Source of the DNA: a virus | Lineage: Duplodnaviria; Caudoviricetes | Length of the DNA stretch: 53,893 bases | IMG/VR virus record: IMGVR_UViG_3300036760_000504 | Location: 1 to 53,893 of that record | Reading direction: 5' to 3' (one strand) | Shown: piece by piece, positions 3,175-35,417 of the stretch | Position numbering within the stretch: position 1 is the first letter of the stretch | How the letters are laid out: each line of letters starts with the position of its first letter | Notes under the pieces: model-generated | Told to the model about the DNA's origin: nothing | The model's input: the letters and a program-made list of their open reading frames with translations, nothing else | Database searches by the model: none | Program-made: the position numbers and the translations under genes

Positions 3175-3624
3175 CTAACTTTCAAGCCGCATTTTAAGGT
3201 TTTGCAAGGCTTGATAAATTTCATAAGCATCTTTGCTGTGATTGCGGTTCTCTAATTTTTCTAAGCCGGTGCCGGGGTTGGTCACGATGAAAAGATTGAT
3301 TAAAATCCTCACCCCCCCTTGCACATCGGTCAATTGAATTTGCAACCTGTGGTTGGGGATAGGGTTCTGATGGGAGCCATAAAAATATGCCATTACCCCT
3401 TCAGCAGGTTTGTCAAGGATTATTAAGTTTGGAGCGGAGCTCACCAACATGAATCCTTTGCTAGAAGTGTCATTGATTATTTCATTCGCCACTTTTTCTT
3501 TGGTCGTTTTATGAATGATAATTTCTGGTTTGCCGCTTTCAGTTGGAATGACAGGGATAGCAGCACAACCATCCAACACCAGCAGGGCACAGAGCACAAT
3601 GAACCATGAAATTTTCATGACCAT
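3175..3624 (-). CDS. Lipoprotein moron inserted antisense in the tail operon
   Basis: Hydrophobic signal ending LDG-C; AAGGAG RBS before the ATG at 3621; AT-richer than flanks. Confidence 0.7.
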   Translation of the reverse strand: MVMKISWFIVLCALLVLDGCAAIPVIPTESGKPEIIIHKTTKEKVANEIINDTSSKGFMLVSSAPNLIILDKPAEGVMAYFYGSHQNPIPNHRLQIQLTDVQGGVRILINLFIVTNPGTGLEKLENRNHSKDAYEIYQALQNLKMRLES

Positions 3625-11018: not shown

Positions 11019-11093
11019 AGTTACATCGACCCGGGTGCTGGCAGACATGAGGTTTCTGCCGGTGTCCAGTTGATTGAAAGCGAGGAGAAAATA

Positions 11094-11870
11094 ATGAAGG
11101 ACTTTCTGGCAGTAGGCATAAACCACTTTCTCCGTCCAGGCAACGACCTCAACGGGTGCGTGGCGGATGCGGAAGCGATGTCCACCTTGTTTAAGGATGA
11201 TGTCGGAAAAGCATTCTTAAAAGATTCTCGGGCCACCAAAAAAAGGGTTTGGGATTGCCTACAGAAATTAGTGAATGAATCCCAATTAGGTAGGATATCT
11301 TACCTTGGCTTCTCCTATTCTGCTCACGGCACTCATTACCCCAGGCCAGAGGAAGCAGACGGGCTGGGTGAAGCCTTGTGCTGCTATGACACCGATGAAA
11401 AAGATGGGGACTGGAACCCAAACACTATCATCAAAGATGAGGAGTTGCGGGCCTTATTGAATCAAGTGCCGCTAACCTGCACCGTGGAGGTCTGGCTGGA
11501 TACCTGTTACAGTGGCGGGATGGACAGGGCTTTTGAGAACCATCCGACGCGCAACCGCTATATGCACAATCCGGGTAATACTGACAAGGTGCTCCGTCTA
11601 TCGAACAGTGCCATGAACCAAGGGCTCAACTCCAATATCATCATGTGGACAGCTTGCTCAGAGGCTCAGGAAAGCGCAGATGCTTGGATAAACGGCGGAA
11701 GCCACGGGGCCTTTACATGGTATTGGATTCAGGCTTTCCAGGCTAACCCCAAGGCCAGCCGGGTTGAATTGTTGTTAGCTACTAGGGCAGGATTAAGGGC
11801 TGGTGGGTTTGACCAGTTTCCCCGGTTAAAATGCTGGAACAAAGCAGCGCAGGAGGCGGTTGGAAATTGA
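11094..11870 (+). CDS. Caspase-family (peptidase C14) protease
   Basis: LAVGIN..NDLNGCVADA, YSAHG (catalytic His), LDTCYSG (catalytic Cys), ACSEAQESAD, HGAFT. Confidence 0.9.
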   Translation: MKDFLAVGINHFLRPGNDLNGCVADAEAMSTLFKDDVGKAFLKDSRATKKRVWDCLQKLVNESQLGRISYLGFSYSAHGTHYPRPEEADGLGEALCCYDTDEKDGDWNPNTIIKDEELRALLNQVPLTCTVEVWLDTCYSGGMDRAFENHPTRNRYMHNPGNTDKVLRLSNSAMNQGLNSNIIMWTACSEAQESADAWINGGSHGAFTWYWIQAFQANPKASRVELLLATRAGLRAGGFDQFPRLKCWNKAAQEAVGN

Positions 11871-13463: not shown

Positions 13464-14477
13464 ATGGGTAATTCATCACTGGTTATCATAGAAAAGGCCG
13501 CGATGATGTTGGCAGAGGCCGACACTATTCAAAAATGCGTAGAATTGAAATCTTTGTTTCTGACATCCGCCGACTGGGCGCGGCGGAAAGGCATGGGAGA
13601 GACGGTTATAAAAACGGCCCGCAGTTATGCTATTCAGGCTGAAATCAAAATGGGGGAAATGCTGGCCGCCACCGAAAGGGCGAAGGGGGTTAAGGGACAA
13701 CTTAAAGGGAAAACTTCTGGCGGTACCCCCACGGTACTGCCAGAAAAAGACAAGGCAGCCCCCACCCTGGCCGAGATCGGCGTCAGCAAAAAGGAAGCTG
13801 CGGAGGCGCAATTTTTAGCAAAATTGCCTGATGAGATCAAATCTCAAGTAATCAATGGTGACAAATCCAAGGTGCAAGCAAAGCGGGAGGTCAAGGAAGC
13901 CAAACGAGAATCCCGGCGAGAAGAAAACCGCAAGGTTATAACCGAAATGCCTGAGTTGGCCTCTGTAATTGGAAAATTCGCTACCATCGTGATTGACCCT
14001 CCATGGGATTGGGGAGACGAGGGAGATGTAAACCAACTAGGGAGAGCAAAGCCAGATTATGCCACCATGTCACTTGAAGAGCTTTATGATTTCCCTGTAG
14101 GCGAAAAGGCTGACATTGATTGCCATTTATATTTATGGATAACAAATCGGTCGTTACCAAAAGGGTTCGGCTTGTTAGAGAAGTGGGGATTCAGGTATAT
14201 CACTTGCTTAACATGGTGCAAAGATCATTATGGAATGGGTAACTATTTCCGCGGGCAAACTGAACATATTCTTTTCGGGGTTAAGGGTTCACAGTCATTA
14301 AAACGAAAAGATGTGGGAACCTTCTTTAACGCACCTCGCCCCCGCCATGGTCACAGTTCAAAGCCAGATGAGTTCTATCAACTAATAGAATCATGCAGTC
14401 CAGGTCCTTATCTTGATATTTTTGGCCGGAAAGAAAGGATTGGTTGGATTATCTTTGGAGAGACCCTTGTCACCTAA
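13464..14477 (+). CDS. MT-A70 family N6-adenine DNA methyltransferase with helical N-terminal extension
   Basis: IVIDPPW, YATMSLEEL, HLYLWITN, GMGNYFRGQTEH, HSSKPDEFY, LDIFGR. Confidence 0.9.
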   Translation: MGNSSLVIIEKAAMMLAEADTIQKCVELKSLFLTSADWARRKGMGETVIKTARSYAIQAEIKMGEMLAATERAKGVKGQLKGKTSGGTPTVLPEKDKAAPTLAEIGVSKKEAAEAQFLAKLPDEIKSQVINGDKSKVQAKREVKEAKRESRREENRKVITEMPELASVIGKFATIVIDPPWDWGDEGDVNQLGRAKPDYATMSLEELYDFPVGEKADIDCHLYLWITNRSLPKGFGLLEKWGFRYITCLTWCKDHYGMGNYFRGQTEHILFGVKGSQSLKRKDVGTFFNAPRPRHGHSSKPDEFYQLIESCSPGPYLDIFGRKERIGWIIFGETLVT

Positions 14478-16236: not shown

Positions 16237-17560
16237 CGTCACGCCAATTTCGGCGGCTTACACGCCGCCGGCCAACCCCGAGGCCGAGCAGTCGGTGTTG
16301 GGGGCCATCCTGGTGCGCCCGGGGGTCCTGGACCTGGTGGCGGTGCTTATTACTCCTGCCGACTTCTACCGGGAGGCTCATGGCAACATCTACCAGGCCA
16401 TGCTGGATTTGCGGGACAGCGGCAAACCAGTGGATTTAGTGACCGTCACCGCCCTTTTGAAAGAGCGGGGAAAGCTGGAGGGGGCGGGGGGGCCGGTGTT
16501 CCTGGCCGGGCTCAGTGAGCAGGTGGGGTTTGCCACCAACGCCGAATATTACGCCCGGGTGGTCAAGGACAAGGCGAGGCTGCGGCGCTTCATTGACAAG
16601 ACGCAGGCGGTGACTGGCGCGGCCTTTGGCCCTCAGGAAAACGTCTCAGAATTTTTAGAGACTGCGGCCCAAGAGATTCTTGATTCTACCGGCAGCGCCC
16701 ATGAAAACGAGGCGGTGTCTCTCCAAACGATGGTGGAGACACAAAGCTCAGTAGTGGAGCAGCAGTTTTACGAGAAGGAACCAACCGGGATTCCGGTGGG
16801 CTACCTTGACCTGGGCCGGCTGATTTCATGGGAGCCTGGGGACCTGATCATCTTGGCGGCGCGCCCTAGCATGGGCAAGACCGCCCTGGCGCTCAACTTC
16901 ATGCTCAAAGTGGCGGCGGCCGGGTCCCATGCCGGCATTATCACCCTGGAAACCAGTAAGGAGAAGCTGACCCGGCGCTTCATGTCCATCATCGGCCGGA
17001 TCAACGGGCACCGGATGAACCAGGGGCGCCTTCAGGCCAGCGAATGGGTGCAGTTTGTCAAACTGAGGGAGCAGGTAGAGGGCCTGCCGATCTGGATAGA
17101 TGATACGCCCTCGCTGAACATTGCTGAGATACGGGCCCGGGCCAGGAACCAGCGCAAGGCTGGCCAGCTTGACTTCCTGGTGGTGGACTATCTGCAACTT
17201 GCCAAGCCCTTGAAGCGGGGCCGGAGCCGGGAGGAGGAAGTGGCTGAACTGAGCCGGGGCCTCAAGTCGCTGGCCAAAGAGCTCAACATCCCGGTCCTGG
17301 CGGTGTCGGCACTGAACCGCAAATTCGCCGAGCGGACGAACAAGCGGCCCCAGCGGTCGGATTTGCGGGAAAGTGGCGCCATTGAATTTGACGCTGACAA
17401 GATCATGTTTCTTTACCGGGAGGAGGAGGACAAGCCGAATGACGATAAGGTGCGGGGTATTGCCGAATTGGACGTGGACAAGCACAAAGACGGGCCGACG
17501 GGAAAGGTGAAGCTGGCCTTTCAGAAAGAGTTTTTCCGGTTCGAGGATCTGGCGCAATGA
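16193..17560 (+). CDS. dnaB: Replicative DNA helicase DnaB
   Basis: EAEQSVLGAIL, AARPSMGKT, VVDYLQL, SDLRESGAIEFDAD, KHKDGPTG. Confidence 0.95.
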   Translation: MSPVKPVKQLPAPNNVTPISAAYTPPANPEAEQSVLGAILVRPGVLDLVAVLITPADFYREAHGNIYQAMLDLRDSGKPVDLVTVTALLKERGKLEGAGGPVFLAGLSEQVGFATNAEYYARVVKDKARLRRFIDKTQAVTGAAFGPQENVSEFLETAAQEILDSTGSAHENEAVSLQTMVETQSSVVEQQFYEKEPTGIPVGYLDLGRLISWEPGDLIILAARPSMGKTALALNFMLKVAAAGSHAGIITLETSKEKLTRRFMSIIGRINGHRMNQGRLQASEWVQFVKLREQVEGLPIWIDDTPSLNIAEIRARARNQRKAGQLDFLVVDYLQLAKPLKRGRSREEEVAELSRGLKSLAKELNIPVLAVSALNRKFAERTNKRPQRSDLRESGAIEFDADKIMFLYREEEDKPNDDKVRGIAELDVDKHKDGPTGKVKLAFQKEFFRFEDLAQ

Positions 17561-19245
17561 CTTCCCCTGACCGCCGCCGGCCTGAGAGGATTGGTATGAA
17601 AGTCCAGTTGATAAACGCCGATGTGCTGGAGGGGCTGGGAAAATTCCCCGACAATCACTTTGACTCCTGCGTCTGCGATCCGCCTTATGAATTAGGTTTT
17701 ATGGGCAAGAAATGGGATTCAACCGGCATCGCCTATTCGGTGGAGATGTGGCGGGAGGTGCTGCGGGTTTTGAAGCCGGGGGCGCACCTGCTGGCCTTTG
17801 GGGGCAGCCGGACTTATCACCGGCTAGCCTGCGCCATTGAGGACGGCGGGTTTCAAATTCGCGATCAACTGCAATGGATTTTTGGCTCCGGGTTTCCTAA
17901 ATCCCTGGACGTTGGGAAGGCGATTGACAAGGCGGCGGGGGCGGAGCGGACTGAAAAAGTTTGGACTGATCGCTATAAGGATGGGAAAACCCGCCAAAAT
18001 CTTGGGCCGATAGGAAATCTCTGGCCGCATGCGAATGGCAATGAGGCGACCGTCCCGGCCACAGACCTCGCCCGGCAATGGGACGGCTGGGGCACGGCCT
18101 TGAAACCGGCGCATGAGCCGATCGTGGTGGCCCGGAAGCCCCCAGAGGGCACGATCATTCAGAACGTGCTCAAGTGGGGGGCCGGGGCGATAAACGTGGC
18201 GGGGTGCATGATCCCGGTTTCTAAAGAGGATGCGGAGCATACGGCGAGGCCAAACTTAAAAGGTAAAATATCTGCTCCCGGAGGCAAGTTATGGGTAATG
18301 AGAAAATATAAACAAGAACACGATATTTCAAGCGGCCGTTGGCCCGCCAACGTGATTCACGACGGCTCTGATGAGGTGCTGGCGGAGTTTGAGAAATCCG
18401 GGAATAGGCCGTCCGGGGCCATGAAGAAACCCTACACCTATAAGAATAACGGGTTTTCAATGGGTGCGCCTTCTGGCGAGACTCGGGCAAACCATGAATC
18501 GAACACCGGCTCCGCCGCCCGCTTCTTCTACTGGGCCAAAAGTTCACCGGCGGAAAGAAATAAAGGACTTGACAGTACCTATACCGTCAAGTATAATATA
18601 CCCAAAATAGGAGGGGTATTATGCAAAGGCGTGGGTATGGTTCTGGTGGAATTACTGCAAAAGGTTATGTCAGAATCAACCGTGACATGGAGCATAGGCG
18701 AGTCTGGCGAAAGCATTATGGGCCAGTGCCCGTCGGGTTCTTTATCCACCATAAAGACCTTGATAAGCAAAATAACGACATCACAAATCTTGAACTTATT
18801 GACACCCTCACTCATAAACGACTGCATAGCGGGTGCGAACTCAGAGACGGAGAGTGGTGGAAGCCTTGCCGGAAGTGCGGCGAAATTAAGCCAGTCTCAA
18901 CCGAATATTACCAACGGAAGCCAAGCGGAATTAGCCCATGGTGTAAGTCTTGCTGTGTCAGAAATGCTGTCAGTAATAAGCGACGCCGAAAATTGGAAGC
19001 CCTCAAGAAATACCCATAGCACGGTCAAGCCCCTGTCCCTCATGACCTACCTGGTGCGTCTGGTGACTCCGCCGGGGGGCCTGGTGCTGGATTGTTTCTG
19101 CGGGAGTGGAAGCACCCTCATCGCTGCGGCCAAGGAAGGGTTTGACAGCGTGGGGATTGATAAAGAAGCGGCCTACGTTGAAATGAGCCAGAAGCGAATT
19201 GCGGGGGAGATGGGTATGCTGTGCGAGGTGTCCATTGAAGATTGA
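17557..19245 (+). CDS. N6/N4 DNA methyltransferase (beta order) with about 145-aa in-frame insertion; start may be 17596
   Basis: CDPPYELGF, GSGFPKS, ALKPAHEPI, GRWPANV, HSTVKP, LDCFCGSGST. Confidence 0.88.
   Translation: MTSPDRRRPERIGMKVQLINADVLEGLGKFPDNHFDSCVCDPPYELGFMGKKWDSTGIAYSVEMWREVLRVLKPGAHLLAFGGSRTYHRLACAIEDGGFQIRDQLQWIFGSGFPKSLDVGKAIDKAAGAERTEKVWTDRYKDGKTRQNLGPIGNLWPHANGNEATVPATDLARQWDGWGTALKPAHEPIVVARKPPEGTIIQNVLKWGAGAINVAGCMIPVSKEDAEHTARPNLKGKISAPGGKLWVMRKYKQEHDISSGRWPANVIHDGSDEVLAEFEKSGNRPSGAMKKPYTYKNNGFSMGAPSGETRANHESNTGSAARFFYWAKSSPAERNKGLDSTYTVKYNIPKIGGVLCKGVGMVLVELLQKVMSESTVTWSIGESGESIMGQCPSGSLSTIKTLISKITTSQILNLLTPSLINDCIAGANSETESGGSLAGSAAKLSQSQPNITNGSQAELAHGVSLAVSEMLSVISDAENWKPSRNTHSTVKPLSLMTYLVRLVTPPGGLVLDCFCGSGSTLIAAAKEGFDSVGIDKEAAYVEMSQKRIAGEMGMLCEVSIED
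18569..18597 (+). promoter_or_regulatory. Consensus sigma70 promoter inside the MTase gene, driving the nested HNH
   Basis: TTGACA(18569)-17 bp-TATAAT(18592); AGGAGG RBS before ATG 18621. Confidence 0.85.
18621..19019 (+). CDS. HNH endonuclease nested in an alternative frame of the MTase
   Basis: GYVRI..EHRRVW..HHKDLDKQNNDITNLELI..HKRLH, plus C-terminal CRKC/CKSC Zn finger; own promoter and RBS. Confidence 0.88.
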   Translation: MQRRGYGSGGITAKGYVRINRDMEHRRVWRKHYGPVPVGFFIHHKDLDKQNNDITNLELIDTLTHKRLHSGCELRDGEWWKPCRKCGEIKPVSTEYYQRKPSGISPWCKSCCVRNAVSNKRRRKLEALKKYP

Positions 19246-19627: not shown

Positions 19628-19879
19628 ATGGTTAGCTGGTTCTGGATTCCATTGGCGGCGTTCGGAGGCTTCATCTTGGGCGGCAATATCCTGGCGCTTT
19701 TATCATCTGGCCGGGAGGAAGATGCCTATTCTGATGGGTATGTAATTGGGCGTCATGTGGGATTTGAGGCCTGGATTAAGAGCATCGGGGGGGCAGGACC
19801 CGGGGGGCAAGCGGAACCGATATCCACCAACCCGCCGGACAATAATTGGAGTTCGGTTGAAAGGCTGGTGGCCCCATGA
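19628..19879 (+). CDS. Hypothetical membrane protein
   Basis: AAGGAG RBS; N-terminal TM segment. Confidence 0.55.
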   Translation: MVSWFWIPLAAFGGFILGGNILALLSSGREEDAYSDGYVIGRHVGFEAWIKSIGGAGPGGQAEPISTNPPDNNWSSVERLVAP

Positions 19880-20565
19880 AAAACTATATCAGCATGGGGT
19901 TTGGGGTTAATTCGGTCGCTCTGTACCTTGACCAGAAAGATAAAGGCGTAGATTTTGAGGCAGTCTATGTCGATCTTGAGTGTGATTGGCCCGAAACAAA
20001 AGAATATGTTGAAATGTTCTGCAATAAATATCCGGTGACAATTATTAAGCCAGGATATGTTAGGGAATCTTTAAGAAAGATTTATGATAATCTTTATGAT
20101 TATTGTATTGACATGAAAATCATTCCATATCGCACGCAAAGATGGTGTACAGCCAATTTTAAGGTTATTCCGTTGCTTCATTATTTCCAAACTCCATGTT
20201 TTGTCTTAATGGGCATAGACGCAGGAGAATCACATAGAGCAAAATTATCAAGCACTAAAGGAACTGAGAACCGTTTCCCCTTGATCGAAGATGGTATAGA
20301 CCGGAACGGTTGTATAGAAATCATTAAATCTCATGGATTGCCGGTTCCAGTAAAGTCAGGTTGTTGGTTTTGCCCTTTTCAACGGGTTTCCGAATTTAGG
20401 AAATTACGCAGATTGCATCCCGATCTATTCTGCAAAGCCGTAGAGATTGAAAAAAACTCTGGTAAATTTTTAGTGGCAACCAATACTTTGTCGAAAATCA
20501 TCAATGAGCCAGATGCCTTCCTTTTCGAGGAACTGGCTTATCCACCCTGCCAATGTGGGCTTTAA
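19876..20565 (+). CDS. PAPS-reductase-like (PP-loop) protein
   Basis: ISMGFGVNS, RWCTANFK, KSGCWFCPF, C-terminal CQC; AT-rich. Confidence 0.75.
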   Translation: MKNYISMGFGVNSVALYLDQKDKGVDFEAVYVDLECDWPETKEYVEMFCNKYPVTIIKPGYVRESLRKIYDNLYDYCIDMKIIPYRTQRWCTANFKVIPLLHYFQTPCFVLMGIDAGESHRAKLSSTKGTENRFPLIEDGIDRNGCIEIIKSHGLPVPVKSGCWFCPFQRVSEFRKLRRLHPDLFCKAVEIEKNSGKFLVATNTLSKIINEPDAFLFEELAYPPCQCGL

Positions 20566-23610: not shown

Positions 23611-24093
23611 ATGGGTAAGCGGGAAGAAACCGATAATCTGGCGATGGAGGTCTATTCGCTAACTTTGCAAAACATGAGCAAGGTGCAGATCGCCAAATAT
23701 CTTGGTATCGACCGGAAGCAGGTTTACCGCCTGATTAAGCGCTACAAAGCCATCCTCCGGTGGCTCGCTGACCATATCGACGGCGCGCTGCACCTGGGGG
23801 AAACCCTTGTCGGCCTTAAACAGTTATACCGGGATGCCCTGGAAAACATTGGGAAGTCGGACCCCGGAAGCGCGGTTGCCGTGGGCTGGGCGAGGGTAGC
23901 CCTGGACGCCCTGAAGGAAATGAAGAAACTCCTGCAAGAGTGCGGGGCGGTGTTCAAAATGCCGGAGTCGGTAGAGGACGGGATACCGTTCGATGACCCG
24001 GAGATTCGGAGAGATTACATGGAACTTCAGGCGCGGGCTTGGGCCAAGGGCAAGGTACTGGCCGGGGGGAAGGAGGGGAGCGGGGATGAGTAA
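23611..24093 (+). CDS. Putative terminase small subunit (HTH)
   Basis: SKVQIAKYLGIDRKQVYRLIK HTH followed by helices; GGAGG RBS; packaging context. Confidence 0.6.
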   Translation: MGKREETDNLAMEVYSLTLQNMSKVQIAKYLGIDRKQVYRLIKRYKAILRWLADHIDGALHLGETLVGLKQLYRDALENIGKSDPGSAVAVGWARVALDALKEMKKLLQECGAVFKMPESVEDGIPFDDPEIRRDYMELQARAWAKGKVLAGGKEGSGDE

Positions 24094-25285
24094 GAAGCCG
24101 GTGGGATTGAAGGATTTCAAAACTGAAATGGTGGCGGTGGCGGACTTGATCCCCTATGTCAACAATCCAAAGGCGCACCCGGCCGGCCAGGTGGACAAGA
24201 TCGCCTCGTCAATCAAAAATTTCGGCTTCCTGGTACCCCTGGTAGTGGACGGGGGAAATGAAATCGTGGCGGGCCATGGGCGCTATGAAGCAGCGCAGAA
24301 GCTCGGCCTGGGGGTGGTGCCATGCGTCCGGGCGGATAATCTCACGCCTGGTGAGGTCAGACTTTTCAGGATTGCTGACAACCGCACCGCCGAAAGCGCC
24401 TGGTTCCCCGAATCGCTGGCACTCGAACTCAAGGCCCTGGAGGAAATGGACTTTGATTTGGGGTTGACCGGGTTTGACCTTGATGAGCTTGAGGAAATGG
24501 GAATCGGCGCGGGCAACGACCCTTCCCCGGAAGACCCCGGCCCACAGATTGACCGGGCCGCGGAGTTGCAGGAGAAGTGGGGGACGAAGCGGGGCCAGAT
24601 ATGGCAGGTCGGGAGACATAGGGTTACGTGCGGAGATAGTAATAAGCAATCCGATGTTAATTTATTATTAGGAAATAATAAACCAGATACGTTAATTTTT
24701 GATCCTGAATGGGATCAGATGAATGGAATTATAAAATATAACTGCGAATATTATAAGTCAGTATTGGCTTTTACCGATGCAAGAAGAATCGGGGAATCTA
24801 TAAAAATATTCGGAATACCTACTTGGTTATTTGTTTGGGATGCTCAAGCATGTTGGTACACCCCAAATAGACCATTACAGAGGGCTAAATATTGTTTGTG
24901 GTATGGAGATATTACTAAATATAACTTCGATGGGGCACATTATGGGGAGCCATTAGAATCGAAAACAGTGAGCAATACCCGCGGCACATATAATTATAAA
25001 TCAGACCCAAGAGGCAAACACTTAGCTGACATTTACTGTGAACAACTTACGAAAGTTCACAAAGAAAGCGGCCACAGCCATAGTAAACCTTTAGATTGGA
25101 TGCGGTGTTTAATCGGTTGCTGTGGAATTGGTGATGTTTTTGATCCTTTCCTTGGAAGTGGTGCAAGCCTTGCAGCTTGCGAGAAATTAGATAGGATTTG
25201 TTATGGAATAGAAATTAATCCGGCATTTATAGCCGTAGCCTTGGATTTGGCCGAACAAATGGGCTTGCAACCGGAGTTATTATGA
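24086..25285 (+). CDS. ParB-like domain fused to a DNA methyltransferase
   Basis: LIPYVNNPKAH..IVAGHGRYEAA..RIADNR; GRHRVTCGDS; IFDPEW; HSHSKP; VFDPFLGSG. Confidence 0.85.
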   Translation: MSKKPVGLKDFKTEMVAVADLIPYVNNPKAHPAGQVDKIASSIKNFGFLVPLVVDGGNEIVAGHGRYEAAQKLGLGVVPCVRADNLTPGEVRLFRIADNRTAESAWFPESLALELKALEEMDFDLGLTGFDLDELEEMGIGAGNDPSPEDPGPQIDRAAELQEKWGTKRGQIWQVGRHRVTCGDSNKQSDVNLLLGNNKPDTLIFDPEWDQMNGIIKYNCEYYKSVLAFTDARRIGESIKIFGIPTWLFVWDAQACWYTPNRPLQRAKYCLWYGDITKYNFDGAHYGEPLESKTVSNTRGTYNYKSDPRGKHLADIYCEQLTKVHKESGHSHSKPLDWMRCLIGCCGIGDVFDPFLGSGASLAACEKLDRICYGIEINPAFIAVALDLAEQMGLQPELL

Positions 25286-30527: not shown

Positions 30528-31643
30528 ATGGCAACCCCCAAAAAGCCCCCGGGCTATTCATTTTCAGCCCTGGATTTGTTTGATCACTGCCCTTGGGCGT
30601 ACAAGTTGGTACGTCTCGACCGCATCCCCCGCGGCGAATCCGAACCCCTGATCATCGGCGCCACAATTCACCGGATTGTGGCGGACTATCTGAATCGGCT
30701 GATCCTCAATCGGCTGTCCACCGATTGGCAGTGGGCCGAGGAAGCAGGGAATTTCATCGACGTGCCCGCCGATGTCCTGGAAATCTGGGAACGGTTCTAT
30801 CAAACCTTCGTGCTTCCTCCCGGCATTGAAGACCCCGGCATTGAAAAAAAGCTGGCTTTTGACCGCAACTGGCAGCCGACAGAGTTCTTTTCCGCAGATG
30901 CCTATTTCCGAGCTGTCGTGGACTTCACCTTCCGGCAGGGGGGGCTGGTGGCGGTTGTTGATTGGAAATCTAACTACATGATCTATGAGGTTGAGAAGAA
31001 CCTCCAGGCCAAAATCTACGGATGGGCGGTGCGCCGGGCGATTTACCCCGATGCCCAGGAGATTCTACTGCGACTCCACTTCCTGCGCTACGGCGCCGAA
31101 CGTGAAATCCTCCTGCTCCCGGAGGACCTGGACACCGTGCCGGCGGAGCTTGAAGCCAAGATCGCCGTCATCGAAGCCGAGAAGCATTTTGACCCACGGC
31201 CCGGGTCTTACTGCTCGTGGTGTGGTGTCCAGAGCCACTGTCCTGTCATGCAGTCGGCCCTGGTCCCCGTAGAGATCATGGCCCCAGCGACCCGGGAACA
31301 AGCCGAGAAAGCGGCGACATTGCTCCTGGCCGTGCGGGAAATGGACAAGATGATCACCGGGCGGCTCAAGGAATACGTGCAGGCGAACGGCCCGGTTCAG
31401 GTAGGAGATCAAATCTATGGCCCTTCCCTGTCCACCAGCTACAACCTGGACCCCCGGGGCGTGACCGAACACCTCCTGGCCGAGGGCCTGGAGGTTGACC
31501 AGGTGTGGGGGATGCTGAACCTCACAAAGACGGGGTTGGAGCGGGGCCTCAAGAAGTTGAAGCGCAAGGACCTGCTCGATGCGATCCTGGCCGGGGCTCC
31601 GAGTACTCAGACCGAACGGATCGGATTTGCCAAGGCCAAATAA
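30528..31643 (+). CDS. PD-(D/E)XK (RecB/Cas4-like) exonuclease
   Basis: YSFSAL..CP, GATIH, RAVVD..VVDWKS..QAKIY, CSWC..CP. Confidence 0.85.
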   Translation: MATPKKPPGYSFSALDLFDHCPWAYKLVRLDRIPRGESEPLIIGATIHRIVADYLNRLILNRLSTDWQWAEEAGNFIDVPADVLEIWERFYQTFVLPPGIEDPGIEKKLAFDRNWQPTEFFSADAYFRAVVDFTFRQGGLVAVVDWKSNYMIYEVEKNLQAKIYGWAVRRAIYPDAQEILLRLHFLRYGAEREILLLPEDLDTVPAELEAKIAVIEAEKHFDPRPGSYCSWCGVQSHCPVMQSALVPVEIMAPATREQAEKAATLLLAVREMDKMITGRLKEYVQANGPVQVGDQIYGPSLSTSYNLDPRGVTEHLLAEGLEVDQVWGMLNLTKTGLERGLKKLKRKDLLDAILAGAPSTQTERIGFAKAK

Positions 31644-31805
31644 TTTGCACCTCGCGCCCCCAGTCTCCACCGCTGCTCGCTGAGGCGGGACACGCCGGGA
31701 TGCTCTTTTTGAAGTCAAGAGTTAAACCGCCGGGGGCAAGCCATATCATCATCTGGCGGTAATTCCGAGCACCAGGCGCTGGCCCCGAGCGAGAGAGGGG
31801 CACTT

Positions 31806-32067
31806 GGAACGGGGCGAGGCCGGGCCGGGCACGGCCGGGCAAGGCGGGGCGGGGCCGGGCGAGGCTTGGAACGAGTCCGGGCATGGCGCGGCCTGGCGAG
31901 GTAAGGCTTGGAACGCGGCATGGTATGGCAGGGAACACGGCTTGGCAGGGCCGGACCAGGCGGGGCGTGGCATGGCTGGGCGAGGAACGTGGCATGGCGG
32001 GGCAGTGCCTGACAAGGCAGTGCGCGGCTTGGCAGTGCAAGTCACGGCGAGGCAAGGAACATGGTAG
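31806..32067 (+). repeat. Phased (GGY-NN)n pentamer array A: five units delimited by GGAAC; candidate guide-RNA array
   Basis: GGAAC at 31806, 31868, 31910, 31932, 31984, 32056; units hold 11, 7, 3, 9 and 13 pentamers in exact 5-nt phase. Confidence 0.9.
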
Positions 32068-32095
32068 TTAAAATTAAGGAACACGGAGGAAGCAA

Positions 32096-32764
32096 ATGAA
32101 ACCGAAAACGTACGCAGTGGAACTGATTGGCGAAACCCCCTTACTGATGCATCATGACAACCTGTCATGGACCGAAACGATGAAGCTATGGGAAAAGGAC
32201 CCGGCAAACCAGGCGATCTCCGTTAAGGGTGATGACAGGTCCCCCGCTTGGCGCTGGATCGGCAACCTGTATGTCGAAGCTGGCCGCATCGTGATCCCCA
32301 GCGACAACCTGATGACTATACTCCGGGAAGGCGGCAAGCGGTGCCCGACTGGTAAAGGTCAGACCACCTTCAAGTCGCAGACTCAAAGCGGTTTGTTAGT
32401 GAACCAGAGTTCCTGGCCGCTAAATGTAAACGGGGGAGCGGAAATCCCCTACGCCCCCATCAAAGCGCTCATCGAGGAGCCGGAGTTTCCTCTGCACGAG
32501 ATGCAGGTGCAGGACCTGGGATTCAACCTGTTTGTCAAACGGGCCAAAATTGGCCAGACCAAGCATGTGCGAGTTCGGCCCCGGTTTGACCAGTGGTCTT
32601 GCAAGGGGACCATCACCATATTCGATGAGACGATCTCACGCGATATCCTGGCGAATATCCTGACCTTTGCCGGCACTTACGCCGGTATGGGCGATTGGCG
32701 TCCCTCATCCCCGAAATCACCGGGGCCCTGGGGCAAATTCACCGCCAAGATCAAGGAGGTGTAA
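32096..32764 (+). CDS. Cas7/RAMP-like protein
   Basis: VELIGETPLLMH first strand; IVIPSDNLMTILREGG; RVRPRFDQW; G-rich loop AGTYAGMGDWRP..GPWGKF at the C-terminus. Confidence 0.7.
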   Translation: MKPKTYAVELIGETPLLMHHDNLSWTETMKLWEKDPANQAISVKGDDRSPAWRWIGNLYVEAGRIVIPSDNLMTILREGGKRCPTGKGQTTFKSQTQSGLLVNQSSWPLNVNGGAEIPYAPIKALIEEPEFPLHEMQVQDLGFNLFVKRAKIGQTKHVRVRPRFDQWSCKGTITIFDETISRDILANILTFAGTYAGMGDWRPSSPKSPGPWGKFTAKIKEV

Positions 32765-32765
32765 C

Positions 32766-33236
32766 GTGAGTACAGTGAAATTTGGCTTTGGCGGAATCCC
32801 CACTGACATTGATGTTAGGAGGTTGCAGGAACAGTTCGGCATACCAAAACCAGGAGAGGTCGTGTCCTACGCAGCTATTTCTGAGTGCATAGGCAATTCC
32901 AAAACTGAATCCAGATTTTGGTCGGTTACAAATGCGTGGCGAAAACAGCTTTTCCGGGAAAACAATCTCGTGACAGAGGCCATTCGCAATGAGGGTTTTG
33001 AGTTTCTTGACGCCCATAAGCGGGTTGGGCATTCGGTCGGCAAGTTTAAGCAGGGCCTACGGAGGGTGAGTAAGGCCTCTATGGTCGCAGCGAGCACCGA
33101 CCGGAGAGATTTGACCCCCGAAGAAAACCGTGTTTGCGACCATATACAGAACACGGGGGCCCAGATCAGACTTGCAGCGGCGACAGCGGCCCGGCAATTA
33201 ACTTATGTGGACCCGGTGAAAGTGCCGTTGCCGTAA
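32766..33236 (+). CDS. Partner protein of the RAMP-like gene (156 aa, possible winged helix plus helical tail)
   Basis: GTG 1 nt after the RAMP stop with AAGGAGG RBS; enclosed between the two arrays. Confidence 0.7.
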   Translation: MSTVKFGFGGIPTDIDVRRLQEQFGIPKPGEVVSYAAISECIGNSKTESRFWSVTNAWRKQLFRENNLVTEAIRNEGFEFLDAHKRVGHSVGKFKQGLRRVSKASMVAASTDRRDLTPEENRVCDHIQNTGAQIRLAAATAARQLTYVDPVKVPLP

Positions 33237-33239
33237 CGT

Positions 33240-33301
33240 GGAACGCGGCATGGCTTGGCAGGGCTTGGCCGGGCATGGCAGGGCCGGGCCTGGCAAGGCA
33301 C
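33240..33301 (+). repeat. Phased (GGC-NN)11 array B, one GGAAC-led unit
   Basis: GGAAC GC GGC AT GGC TT GGC AG GGC TT GGC CG GGC AT GGC AG GGC CG GGC CT GGC AA GGC AC. Confidence 0.9.
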
Positions 33302-33303
33302 GG

Positions 33304-33337
33304 AGGGGGCCGCTCACCCCGGCCCCCTAATTTTTTT
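33304..33337 (+). terminator. Intrinsic terminator closing array B
   Basis: AGGGGGCCG-CTCACCC-CGGCCCCCT perfect 9-bp stem, then AATTTTTTT. Confidence 0.75.
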
Positions 33338-33354
33338 AAAGGAGGGAAAAATCA

Positions 33355-33588
33355 ATGAAGACTATCATGCTTATTGTCACGTTGTTAATGTGTTCCGGGT
33401 GCGCTTCGACGCCCATGAATGTCGTCATGACCAACCCGGGAACCGGCAAGTCGATCTACATCGCGCATTATTCGTATGGGGTCGGATTTGGAGCTATAGG
33501 CCCCGCCATCGTAGCCGAACAACAGCAGAAAAAAGCCATCGAGGCTGCCAAGATGATGGGGTTCACTGAAATGCAGGTGGTGAAATGA
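33355..33588 (+). CDS. Small lipoprotein
   Basis: MKTIMLIVTLLMCSG-C lipobox; AGGAGG RBS. Confidence 0.7.
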   Translation: MKTIMLIVTLLMCSGCASTPMNVVMTNPGTGKSIYIAHYSYGVGFGAIGPAIVAEQQQKKAIEAAKMMGFTEMQVVK

Positions 33589-35417
33589 AAATTCAATCCA
33601 TCGAAATCCACAACGTACTCGCCCTGGAGCAGGTGACGCTTGAACTCCAGGCCCCCATAAACCTACTTATCGGCCCTAACGAGGCGGGCAAGTCCAGCAT
33701 TAGGGATAGTCTGCAAGTCGCCCTCACGGGCCAGGCCCGGGGCTTAAAGAAGCACGAGGATCAAGCATACCTCATCCGGGAGGGCGCCAAGGCCGCGGAT
33801 ATCAAGATCATCCTGGCGGACGGCCAGGACCCGATAACCTGGCATAAGACCCCCAAGGTAGCGGCCACCAGAACCGGCCCGATCCCCGATGACGCGGTTA
33901 TGATGAGCATCCTGGCGGACCCCATGCACTTCCTTTCTCTGGAAGATAAGGCCCGGCGGGAGGTGCTTTTCCGGTTGATACCCGGACTTTCCCCCACCTC
34001 CGGCGCCCTGGCAAAAGAGCTGGCAGCGGTCCCCGGGGTTAAAGAAATCATCGGGGAAGAGGTGCACCCGGCCTGGCAAGCGGTTTCCGGCCTGGGTCAC
34101 ATGGCCGCGACTGAGGGTTTTCAGAAAGCCGAAAACGAAGCCATAATCCGACGTCGCCTCGCCAAACGCACCCGAGACGAGGCCCAGGTGAAGGACCCCG
34201 CAACCAAGGCCACCATCGGCGGGGTGCTCCGCATCCTTCCCGACATTCAGTCGGCGGACGTGGAGGCCGGGCTGTCCACGATCCGGGCCGAACGGGACAA
34301 ACTGCAGCGCACCCGGGGCAAAGTAGAGGCCCAGGCCGACCAGCTCCCGGAGTTGGAAGCGGCCCTGGTATCCCTGGAAGCCTCCCCCCCGGAGGCCCCG
34401 GACCCCGACCGCCCGGTGGAGGACTTTGTCAAGGCACTGGAAATCAACCAAGGCATCCTGGTAAAGTGTCGGGCGAAAGTGGCGGCGATGACTGAGGGTC
34501 AGGACCCGCAGAAGTTCCCGGCCCTGTGCCCGGCTTTTAATATCGGGTGCCCCAGCGCCGGGAAGGAGGCCATCAAGGGCACGAAGCCCAAGGACGTGGA
34601 CCCCAAGGCCCTGGCTAAGGCCCAGGCCGACCTCCAGGAGCAGGAAAAGGAAGTCGGGCTGATCGAAGCCGACCTTGCGGCCGCACGGCTGGCCCAGGCC
34701 ACCTATGATGATTACACGAAGCAGCGCCAGGCCCTGGTGGACAAGATCGCCAAGATTAAGGAGGCTCAGGGTCAGGCCGTGGACGCGGCCACCATCGACG
34801 AACAGATCACCGCCCTGGACCAGCGCATGGTTATCGGCCACGAACTGCTGGACGCGGTGCGGGAGTTCTGGCGCAAGAAAGATGCGGCGGACCAGGCGGC
34901 CGGCAAGTTGGCTGAGGTCGAAAAGGAGATTGCCCTGTACGATGCTTTGGCTAAGGCCCTGGCCCCGGATGGTATCCCGAGCACCTTGATCGCTGAGGCC
35001 CTGGGACCGGTGAATGAACGGTTGGCCTTTGCCTCCGGGTATCTATTCCCGGACATTGACGAACATGAACCCCTGCACCTTACGCAAGATCTGGAGGTTT
35101 ACCGGGGGATCACCCCCTATGCGCTTTTATCGAAGTCCGCCAGATACAGAACCGGGATTGCTTTTCAATTTGCCCTGGCCGTTCTATCCGGGGCAAGGAT
35201 CATGATGATCGATGAAGGCGACATCCTGGACCCTCCGAACAGAGCCAACCTCATTGATTTTCTCCTGGCCATCCGTCAGGATTTCGACACGATCCTCGTA
35301 TTCGCCACTAGTGACCATGCCGACCCTTCACCTATCCCGGAGCTGGCAGTCTGGTGGTTGGAGGAGGGGAGGATCAGCCCGGTGGTGATGCAGGAGATGA
35401 AGGAACAGGCCGCCTGA
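33585..35417 (+). CDS. SMC/Rad50(SbcC)-like ATPase
   Basis: Walker A GPNEAGKS, coiled coil with central CPAFNIGCP, LSKSARY signature, Walker B MMIDEGD. Confidence 0.85.
   Translation: MKIQSIEIHNVLALEQVTLELQAPINLLIGPNEAGKSSIRDSLQVALTGQARGLKKHEDQAYLIREGAKAADIKIILADGQDPITWHKTPKVAATRTGPIPDDAVMMSILADPMHFLSLEDKARREVLFRLIPGLSPTSGALAKELAAVPGVKEIIGEEVHPAWQAVSGLGHMAATEGFQKAENEAIIRRRLAKRTRDEAQVKDPATKATIGGVLRILPDIQSADVEAGLSTIRAERDKLQRTRGKVEAQADQLPELEAALVSLEASPPEAPDPDRPVEDFVKALEINQGILVKCRAKVAAMTEGQDPQKFPALCPAFNIGCPSAGKEAIKGTKPKDVDPKALAKAQADLQEQEKEVGLIEADLAAARLAQATYDDYTKQRQALVDKIAKIKEAQGQAVDAATIDEQITALDQRMVIGHELLDAVREFWRKKDAADQAAGKLAEVEKEIALYDALAKALAPDGIPSTLIAEALGPVNERLAFASGYLFPDIDEHEPLHLTQDLEVYRGITPYALLSKSARYRTGIAFQFALAVLSGARIMMIDEGDILDPPNRANLIDFLLAIRQDFDTILVFATSDHADPSPIPELAVWWLEEGRISPVVMQEMKEQAA

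Follow-up and report, generated by a model that had tools for sequence, protein, structure and literature searches.

A probable VIPR system with punctuated, tail-less guide arrays on a complete tailed-phage genome

Introduction

The virus record IMGVR_UViG_3300036760_000504, a complete tailed-phage genome of 53,893 bp that was analysed over its whole length and is called the window below, carries at positions 31804-33338 what is very probably a system of the VIPR (Viral Interference Programmable Repeat) type; we put the probability of this reading at about 90%. The unit is compact and lies entirely on the + strand, and consists of a first array of GGY-NN repeats (array A, 31806-32067), a gene for a 222-residue protein (vipr), a gene for a 156-residue protein (vap), a second array (array B, 33240-33301) and an intrinsic terminator. 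A first-pass annotation, made from the letters and their open reading frames, had proposed that arrays, genes and terminator form one unit, and each element lies at the position that it gave. It had also suggested a match to a phage family named VIPR. The family does exist in print, and the 222-residue protein is homologous to one of its members, Vipr of SUSP1, so that raw sequence alone sufficed for a reader to recognise the locus.

The locus adds a member to a family that has already been described. Because that family is very large, one more member is in itself unsurprising. Until now the family has been known chiefly through Escherichia and Pseudomonas models, and the window gives it a complete phage genome from the environment; the useful extra is the anatomy of its tail-less arrays: their punctuation by the heptamer NNGGAAC, the spread of that punctuation among relatives, and a natural variant in which two guide blocks are fused.

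VIPR is the subject of three 2026 preprints, dealing with discovery (10.64898/2026.04.26.720920), structure (10.64898/2026.04.26.720927) and competition (10.64898/2026.10.15.759431). As these preprints present it, the system has a two-gene vipr-vap core, is found mostly in phages and prophages, and uses guide RNAs (vrRNAs) of 9-16 YNNGG repeats. One Vipr protomer binds each repeat, forming a helical filament in which the GGY bases are flipped into the protein and the NN bases are left to pair with double-stranded DNA, every third base being skipped; the outcome is transcriptional silencing of rival satellites and prophages. The first-pass annotation had guessed that each subunit grips one GGY and presents NN, just as the structure preprint reports for VIPR by cryo-electron microscopy (10.64898/2026.04.26.720927). 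In SUSP1 Vipr, according to the same source, H17 and D177 read the first G, R138 and W178 read the second, and R179 helps to hold the pyrimidine, in a pocket that sterically excludes purines.

The discovery preprint lists 667 VIPR systems. Seven types (I-VII) are described, with varied array architectures, among them "staggered arrays with overlapping vrRNAs"; the small-RNA sequencing of the discovery work confirmed the ribozyme and single-vrRNA architectures alone, not the staggered arrays (10.64898/2026.04.26.720920). The characterised type II vrRNAs carry a conserved 3' tail, the pseudoknot of which caps the filament (10.64898/2026.04.26.720920, 10.64898/2026.04.26.720927).

The Vipr protein

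The vipr gene (32096-32764, + strand) has an ATG start and a GGAGG ribosome-binding site at 32085-32089. A scan of its product against Pfam gave no match, and the PHROG family that matched, phrog_4652 (E 1.5e-17), has no annotated function. More informative was a profile, A1, made from an alignment of 68 family members: its best match in the PDB was 36pp_D (E 2.2e-16), the entry named "SUSP1 Vipr protein", and the runner-up had an E value of 0.17. BLASTP to the homologue from Felixounavirus VpaE1 gave E 3e-13 at 22% identity. In both pairwise and profile alignments the five SUSP1 contact residues H17, R138, D177, W178 and R179 align to H19, R161, D200, W201 and R202 of the 222-residue protein, each of which is at least 90% conserved in A1; the VpaE1 homologue has H17, R138, D177, W178 and R179 at SUSP1 numbering. 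Judged by these alignments, the 222-residue protein is a homologue of SUSP1 Vipr.

The predicted structure agrees with the first-pass suggestion that this protein has the outline of RAMP/Cas7 backbone subunits. The motifs singled out at that time, TPLLMH and GMGDWRP..GPWGKF, are both found in the translation, and the AlphaFold model has a pLDDT (predicted local distance difference test score) of 97 and a pTM (predicted template-modelling score) of 0.91. Foldseek, the check then proposed, returned 62 matches at E <= 1e-3; all 41 of the matches listed are CRISPR RAMP effector complexes, with Cas7, Csm3 and Cmr4 as the nearest solved folds among them.

These nearest folds might be taken to mean that the gene is an orphan Cas7, the remnant of a degenerate CRISPR-Cas module. 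However, none of the 62 open reading frames of the window matches cas models (0/62) and no CRISPR repeat-spacer array was found there, as the first-pass annotation had also remarked, while the profile has a single significant match in the PDB, SUSP1 Vipr, which is no Cas protein. We consider descent from a CRISPR-Cas module exceedingly improbable.

The protein family is widespread. At E <= 0.001 it comprises 2479 proteins (as 90%-identity clusters); at 50% identity there are 1159 representatives, 188 of them at E <= 1e-30. Within a phage collection the protein matches 94 records at 21-26% identity, mostly Felixounavirus-like phages of Escherichia and Salmonella, the rest including Pseudomonas phage LESphi2 and Gordonia phages. 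The genomes with the nearest Vipr homologues belong to differing phyla: a Syntrophobacteraceae metagenome-assembled genome (MAG; 65% identity), Geothrix (59%) and Nitrospira (55%). For the scan of genome collections a closer alignment, A2, was used.

The Vap protein

The vap gene (32766-33236, + strand) begins with a GTG codon 1 nt past the vipr stop, with AAGGAGG before the start, and is translationally coupled to vipr. In its 156-residue product a winged-helix-like domain at the N-terminus (residues 12-81) is combined with a helical hairpin at the C-terminus. Homologues of Vap occur in 16 of the 26 related loci described below, usually directly downstream of vipr, and a large database holds just 12 cluster representatives.

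Compared by hhalign with the protein that VpaE1 encodes at the vap position, Vap gave a probability of 91% (E 1.1e-6); for its counterpart in LESphi2, profile comparison gave 43%. Foldseek with Vap produced no match at E <= 1e-3, and the weak matches that it gave are to winged-helix DNA-binding domains in almost every case. Vap thus fits the "predicted DNA-binding" vap proteins of the preprint and is a candidate DNA-binding protein.

The guide arrays

Array A is made up of five NNGGY blocks, with 12, 8, 4, 10 and 14 NN positions, followed by one degenerate block. Each block closes in a 7-nt NNGGAAC, and the register moves by +2 at every such delimiter; the delimiters end at 31810, 31872, 31914, 31936, 31988, 32060 and 32082. 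The "exact 5-nt period" of the first-pass annotation therefore holds within blocks and fails across the array as a whole. The degenerate triplets GAC, GTC and TGC that it mentioned are present in the arrays.

All blocks lie on the + strand. A leader delimiter, TTGGAAC (31804-31810), stands just 5' of the first guide block, vr1 (31811-31872), which has 12 NN positions in the form of 11 perfect NNGGC units and a terminal TTGGAAC. Next come vr2 (31873-31914), with 8 NN positions, GTC in place of GGY in its first unit and a closing TTGGAAC, and the short block vr3 (31915-31936), with 4 NN positions and AGGGAAC at its end. The block vr4 (31937-31988) has 10 NN positions, one GAC unit and a closing GAGGAAC, and vr5 (31989-32060) has 14 NN positions, five degenerate triplets (TGC three times, GAC and GTC) and a closing AAGGAAC. 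The last, degenerate block of 22 nt (32061-32082) consists of ATGGT, two non-GGY units and AAGGAAC, after which the ribosome-binding site of vipr follows. On the far side of the genes, a delimiter GTGGAAC (33238-33244, + strand) lies 5' of the single block of array B, vrB (33245-33304, + strand), with 12 NN positions as 11 perfect NNGGC units plus ACGGA. Array B abuts the terminator directly, with no tail between them.

Of the 54 in-register units in the six blocks, 51 have G at position 3, 50 have G at position 4, and 52 have C at position 5, the other 2 having T there; all four bases are used at positions 1 and 2. Perfect runs of at least four NNGGY units take in 37 units of the window, the longest run having 11. 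By comparison, 200 second-order Markov simulations of the window gave a mean of 2.1 units and no run longer than 5, and among 2000 simulations trained on the arrays' own composition none reached the observed values. The arrays are far beyond chance.

If the NNGGAAC elements are guide ends, the blocks would carry 12, 8, 4, 10, 14 and 12 NN positions, four of the six values being inside the published range of 9-16.

Related loci and natural variants

Related loci were collected on 26 contigs, of which 3 are viral and 23 come from genomes; they span many phyla, the family members in them being assigned to at least 10. Arrays lie on the vipr strand in 24 of the 26, counted as runs of at least 4 perfect units no more than 900 nt upstream or 1500 nt downstream; this bears out the first-pass expectation that homologues co-occur with GGY-NN tracts. 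The two loci in which none was counted are L022, where the contig begins inside the gene, and L029, a gene fragment. Minus-strand runs number just two across the 26 loci, both short. Between close relatives the NN content is wholly different, as in the window and L001, the proteins of which are 82% identical.

How are guides separated in these relatives? Taking the window and the 26 loci together, short gaps between blocks are most often 7 nt long (n = 27), and 26 of these 27 gaps read NNGGA.., with 16 ending in GGAAC; 7-nt gaps are present in the window and 8 loci. Other relatives use a short hairpin as tail, AT-rich spacers of 25-28 nt, or unbroken runs of great length. The VpaE1 and LESphi2 loci, which hold Vipr homologues, have intergenic GGY-NN runs followed by conserved tails, the tail in which VpaE1 guides close being about 40 nt long.

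Several of these architectures deserve mention in their own right. The array of L016 (1637-2284, on a contig of a Saccharibacteria MAG) has eight guide blocks, each of 8-17 units, set apart by conserved 25-28-nt AT-rich spacers starting NNGGAT, an arrangement unlike both that of the window and that of SUSP1. The guides in the downstream arrays of L017, L025, L026 and L027 are tailed by a short, conserved hairpin with the form GGGNGCCAATGGCNC. A tail distinct from this hairpin form and starting AAGGGCTGT is common to L003 and phage LESphi2. In L023, unbroken runs of 28 and 22 perfect NNGGY units (2298-2437 and 3180-3289) lie beside a Vipr homologue and are well over the published 9-16 units per vrRNA.

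When crude array labels (7-nt delimiter, long tail, other) were placed on a Vipr tree, no significant clustering was found; the delimiter label required 6 changes, a figure no higher than that being reached in 115 of 500 shuffles. The fragments L022 and L029 were left out of this tree, and the branch of L010 is aberrantly long, probably owing to translation coordinates.

A natural variant of the unit itself comes from a second sample. A 1542-nt DNA contig of run X2, spanning 31773-33316, differs from the window by 8 substitutions and 2 gaps; of the substitutions, 6 are listed, with 2 in vipr and 0 in vap. A change at 31934 together with the loss of 31935 and 31937 (a net 2 nt) turns the vr3/vr4 delimiter into an in-register unit, so that vr3 and vr4 are fused into a single 14-unit block, and this natural fusion favours a modular view of the arrays. 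The other three listed array substitutions (31943, 31958 and 31995) all fall on NN positions. Contigs of run X2 also break or diverge near 31802 and within array B, and cassette variants may coexist.

Could the arrays have nothing to do with the genes beside them, and be simply slippage microsatellites or a coding repeat rich in G? Tandem Repeats Finder does report short periods of 5, 10 and 15, and an 87-residue open reading frame can be drawn across array A. A 5-nt period, however, cannot keep a reading frame, and the first-pass annotation had already argued that such arrays do not look like slippage decay. That argument has held up: the triplet is fixed while the dinucleotide varies, and the vipr-strand arrays of 24 of the 26 loci, from many phyla, differ in NN content. 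Considering also that the variant-strain substitutions fall on NN positions, a microsatellite or coding origin is scarcely credible.

A metatranscriptome, run X4, includes an 834-nt contig over the vipr gene of a relative (48 differences) as well as short contigs on array-like sequence. One contig of this RNA library, 40 nt long at depth 62, corresponds to array-like sequence at 33247-33284 with 4 differences. Such contigs hint at expression of related VIPR loci in sediment; they show neither transcription nor RNA ends.

Searches for targets

A scan of the phage genome with 1-nt-skip pairing found no self-target above shuffle level, the best self-matches being 16/24, 12/16, 13/20, 18/28 and 17/24 as compared with shuffle bests of 16-19, 11-13, 13-14, 17-19 and 16. 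An absence of self-targets is also reported by the discovery preprint for its own systems (10.64898/2026.04.26.720920). Cross-targeting was searched for with 81 guides of at least 8 good units, from 27 sources, against all the DNA gathered for the analysis, and 0 matches reached 85% NN identity. The scans of larger collections covered vr1, vr4 and vrB and allowed zero mismatches: vr1 (12 units), vrB (12) and vr4 (10) each gave 0 matches in a viral contig collection, and vrB and vr1 (11 units each) each gave 0 matches in metagenome contigs. Because the preprints accept NN identities of at least 80%, the absence of targets from exact scans says little.

Two further explanations concern what the guides are for. 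In the first, the locus is a VIPR system by descent that is decaying or idle, with guides that match nothing and some blocks broken. The state of certain blocks speaks for it, namely 5 of 14 degenerate triplets in vr5, the 4 units of vr3 and a last block of array A that is mostly non-GGY, as does the failure of the exact scans to give a target. On the other hand, neither reading frame is broken, each has its ribosome-binding site and the starts are coupled, every contact residue is retained, and vr1 and vrB are perfect 11-unit runs. Moreover, the unit from the second sample has just 8 substitutions and 2 gaps over 1542 nt, with the listed changes sparing vap, and exact-match scans are too insensitive for the missing targets to mean much. 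We judge decay very unlikely.

In the second, a working VIPR system directs its guides to genes of the host, or to regulation of the phage itself, and not to rival mobile elements. In favour of this, the DNA scanned for targets included no host genome, and vrRNAs aimed at host decoy sites have been described (10.64898/2026.10.15.759431). Against this, there is no phage self-match above shuffle level, and the natural targets given in the discovery preprint are mostly satellites and prophages (10.64898/2026.04.26.720920). Such an aim seems unlikely.

Points weighing against a VIPR assignment

Assignment of the unit to VIPR has to be set against several observations. Identity to SUSP1-type Vipr is just ~22%, and in the small Vipr tree the SUSP1-type phage proteins, together with that of LESphi2, are set apart by a long branch; the 1-nt skip rule and other details of mechanism are for these reasons extrapolated. 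Unlike the type II SUSP1 clade, the window has no 3' tail or pseudoknot for each guide, with the 7-nt NNGGAAC alone between blocks, although the discovery preprint leaves room for different architectures outside that type (10.64898/2026.04.26.720920). Degenerate triplets make up 5/14 of vr5, and vr3, with its 4 units, falls under the published 9-16. On the + strand upstream of array A, no sigma-70-like promoter turned up in a simple consensus scan. No natural target emerged from the self, cross-target or exact collection scans, and the RNA-library signal consists of contigs of a relative alone, possibly DNA carry-over.

A model for the unit and its punctuation

By homology to the SUSP1 and P. 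fulva systems, which have been studied by experiment, the whole unit would be transcribed as a single + strand RNA ending at the terminator, and the arrays would be cut into vrRNAs. One Vipr protomer would bind each pentamer, with H19 and D200 reading the first G, R161 and W201 reading the second, and the pyrimidine being held by the pocket of the next protomer with the help of R202. The exposed NN pairs would then read double-stranded DNA, one base being skipped per pair, and binding would silence transcription of a competing mobile element, with the winged-helix-like Vap assisting.

What, then, might NNGGAAC do? We infer that it acts as punctuation. It places a purine where a pyrimidine is expected, and since the pyrimidine pocket excludes purines, GGA plus two extra bases would end one filament and insulate it from the next: the purine would be barred from the Y pocket and the two additional bases would break the register. 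Filaments would stop at each NNGGAAC and the bare linker would be cut, leaving tail-less guides of about 8-14 units that have no SUSP1-type 3' pseudoknot. Tentatively, then, NNGGAAC may be a stop signal read by the protein, allowing this VIPR clade to pack many guides end to end without needing a tail, a ribozyme or a spacer, and a gain or loss of 2 nt could split or fuse guides, as in the natural variant where blocks of 4 and 10 units have become one of 14; we regard this proposal as possible rather than likely. The punctuation, taken with its spread among relatives and the fusion variant, supplies a concrete and testable rule for dividing such arrays into guides. If the stop-signal proposal is true, it would offer a simple route for the evolution of guide number and length, and a minimal design rule for multiplexed VIPR arrays.

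Genomic context

The window is the whole virus record, classed as having direct terminal repeats and as 100% complete; the terminal repeat as measured is 127 bp. PHROG matches include structural genes (tape measure, tail fibre J, portal, major head and head-tail adaptor) as well as a replication initiator, a DnaB helicase and several DNA methyltransferases. The structural and replication genes identify the genome as that of a tailed phage. The public runs that hold this phage are sediment metagenomes.

Upstream, the neighbour of the unit is a PD-(D/E)XK exonuclease gene (30528-31643; Pfam E 2.6e-18), and downstream it is a gene for an SbcC-like ATPase (33585-35417; Pfam and PHROG matches). The intrinsic terminator that closes the unit (33304-33338, + strand) has a hairpin at 33304-33328 with a 9-bp stem, 8 of the pairs being G-C, followed by a T run. 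An Rfam scan of 31000-34000 at E <= 1 matched no family, hammerhead included. Directly past the terminator, a 77-residue open reading frame (33355-33588) has a lipoprotein-like N-terminus, with a hydrophobic stretch and then Cys, and weak matches to Rz-like spanins (E 0.05-0.06).

Elsewhere in the genome, PHROG and PADLOC point to three genes for DNA methyltransferases (13464-14474, 17557-19242 and 23993-25282), one of which carries a fused ParB-like domain, and to a PAPS-reductase/SspD-like gene (19876-20562). These genes suggest a heavy investment in DNA modification or anti-restriction. A 266-residue open reading frame (11070-11867) has a weak PADLOC "caspase" match over residues 13-109 (E 2.1e-6).

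Comparison with known systems

The CRISPR class 1 RAMPs (type VII Cas7, Csm3, Cmr4 and Cas7-11) differ from the unit described here in that it has no sequence-level Cas match and neither a CRISPR array nor cas genes, and in that its period is 5 nt instead of 6 and its guide would be non-contiguous. The closer likeness is to type II VIPR as found in SUSP1 and a P. fulva prophage: the unit shares with these the vipr-vap core, the same-strand intergenic GGY-NN arrays, carriage by a phage and the absence of cas genes. As in SUSP1, the Vipr protein is homologous and keeps the five GGY-contact residues; Vap, for its part, bears a distant resemblance to the Felixounavirus protein encoded at the corresponding place. 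The differences from the SUSP1 type lie in the sequence and size of Vipr (~22% identity, and 222 residues here as against 195-202), and the repeat triplet is nearly always GGC in the window as against mostly GGT in VpaE1. With regard to array architecture, the legend of fig. S18 in the discovery preprint speaks of "staggered vrRNA arrays" (10.64898/2026.04.26.720920), and the back-to-back, register-shifted blocks of the window fit that description. As likened by the text description only, the tail-less, punctuated arrays of this phage are probably examples of the published staggered architecture.

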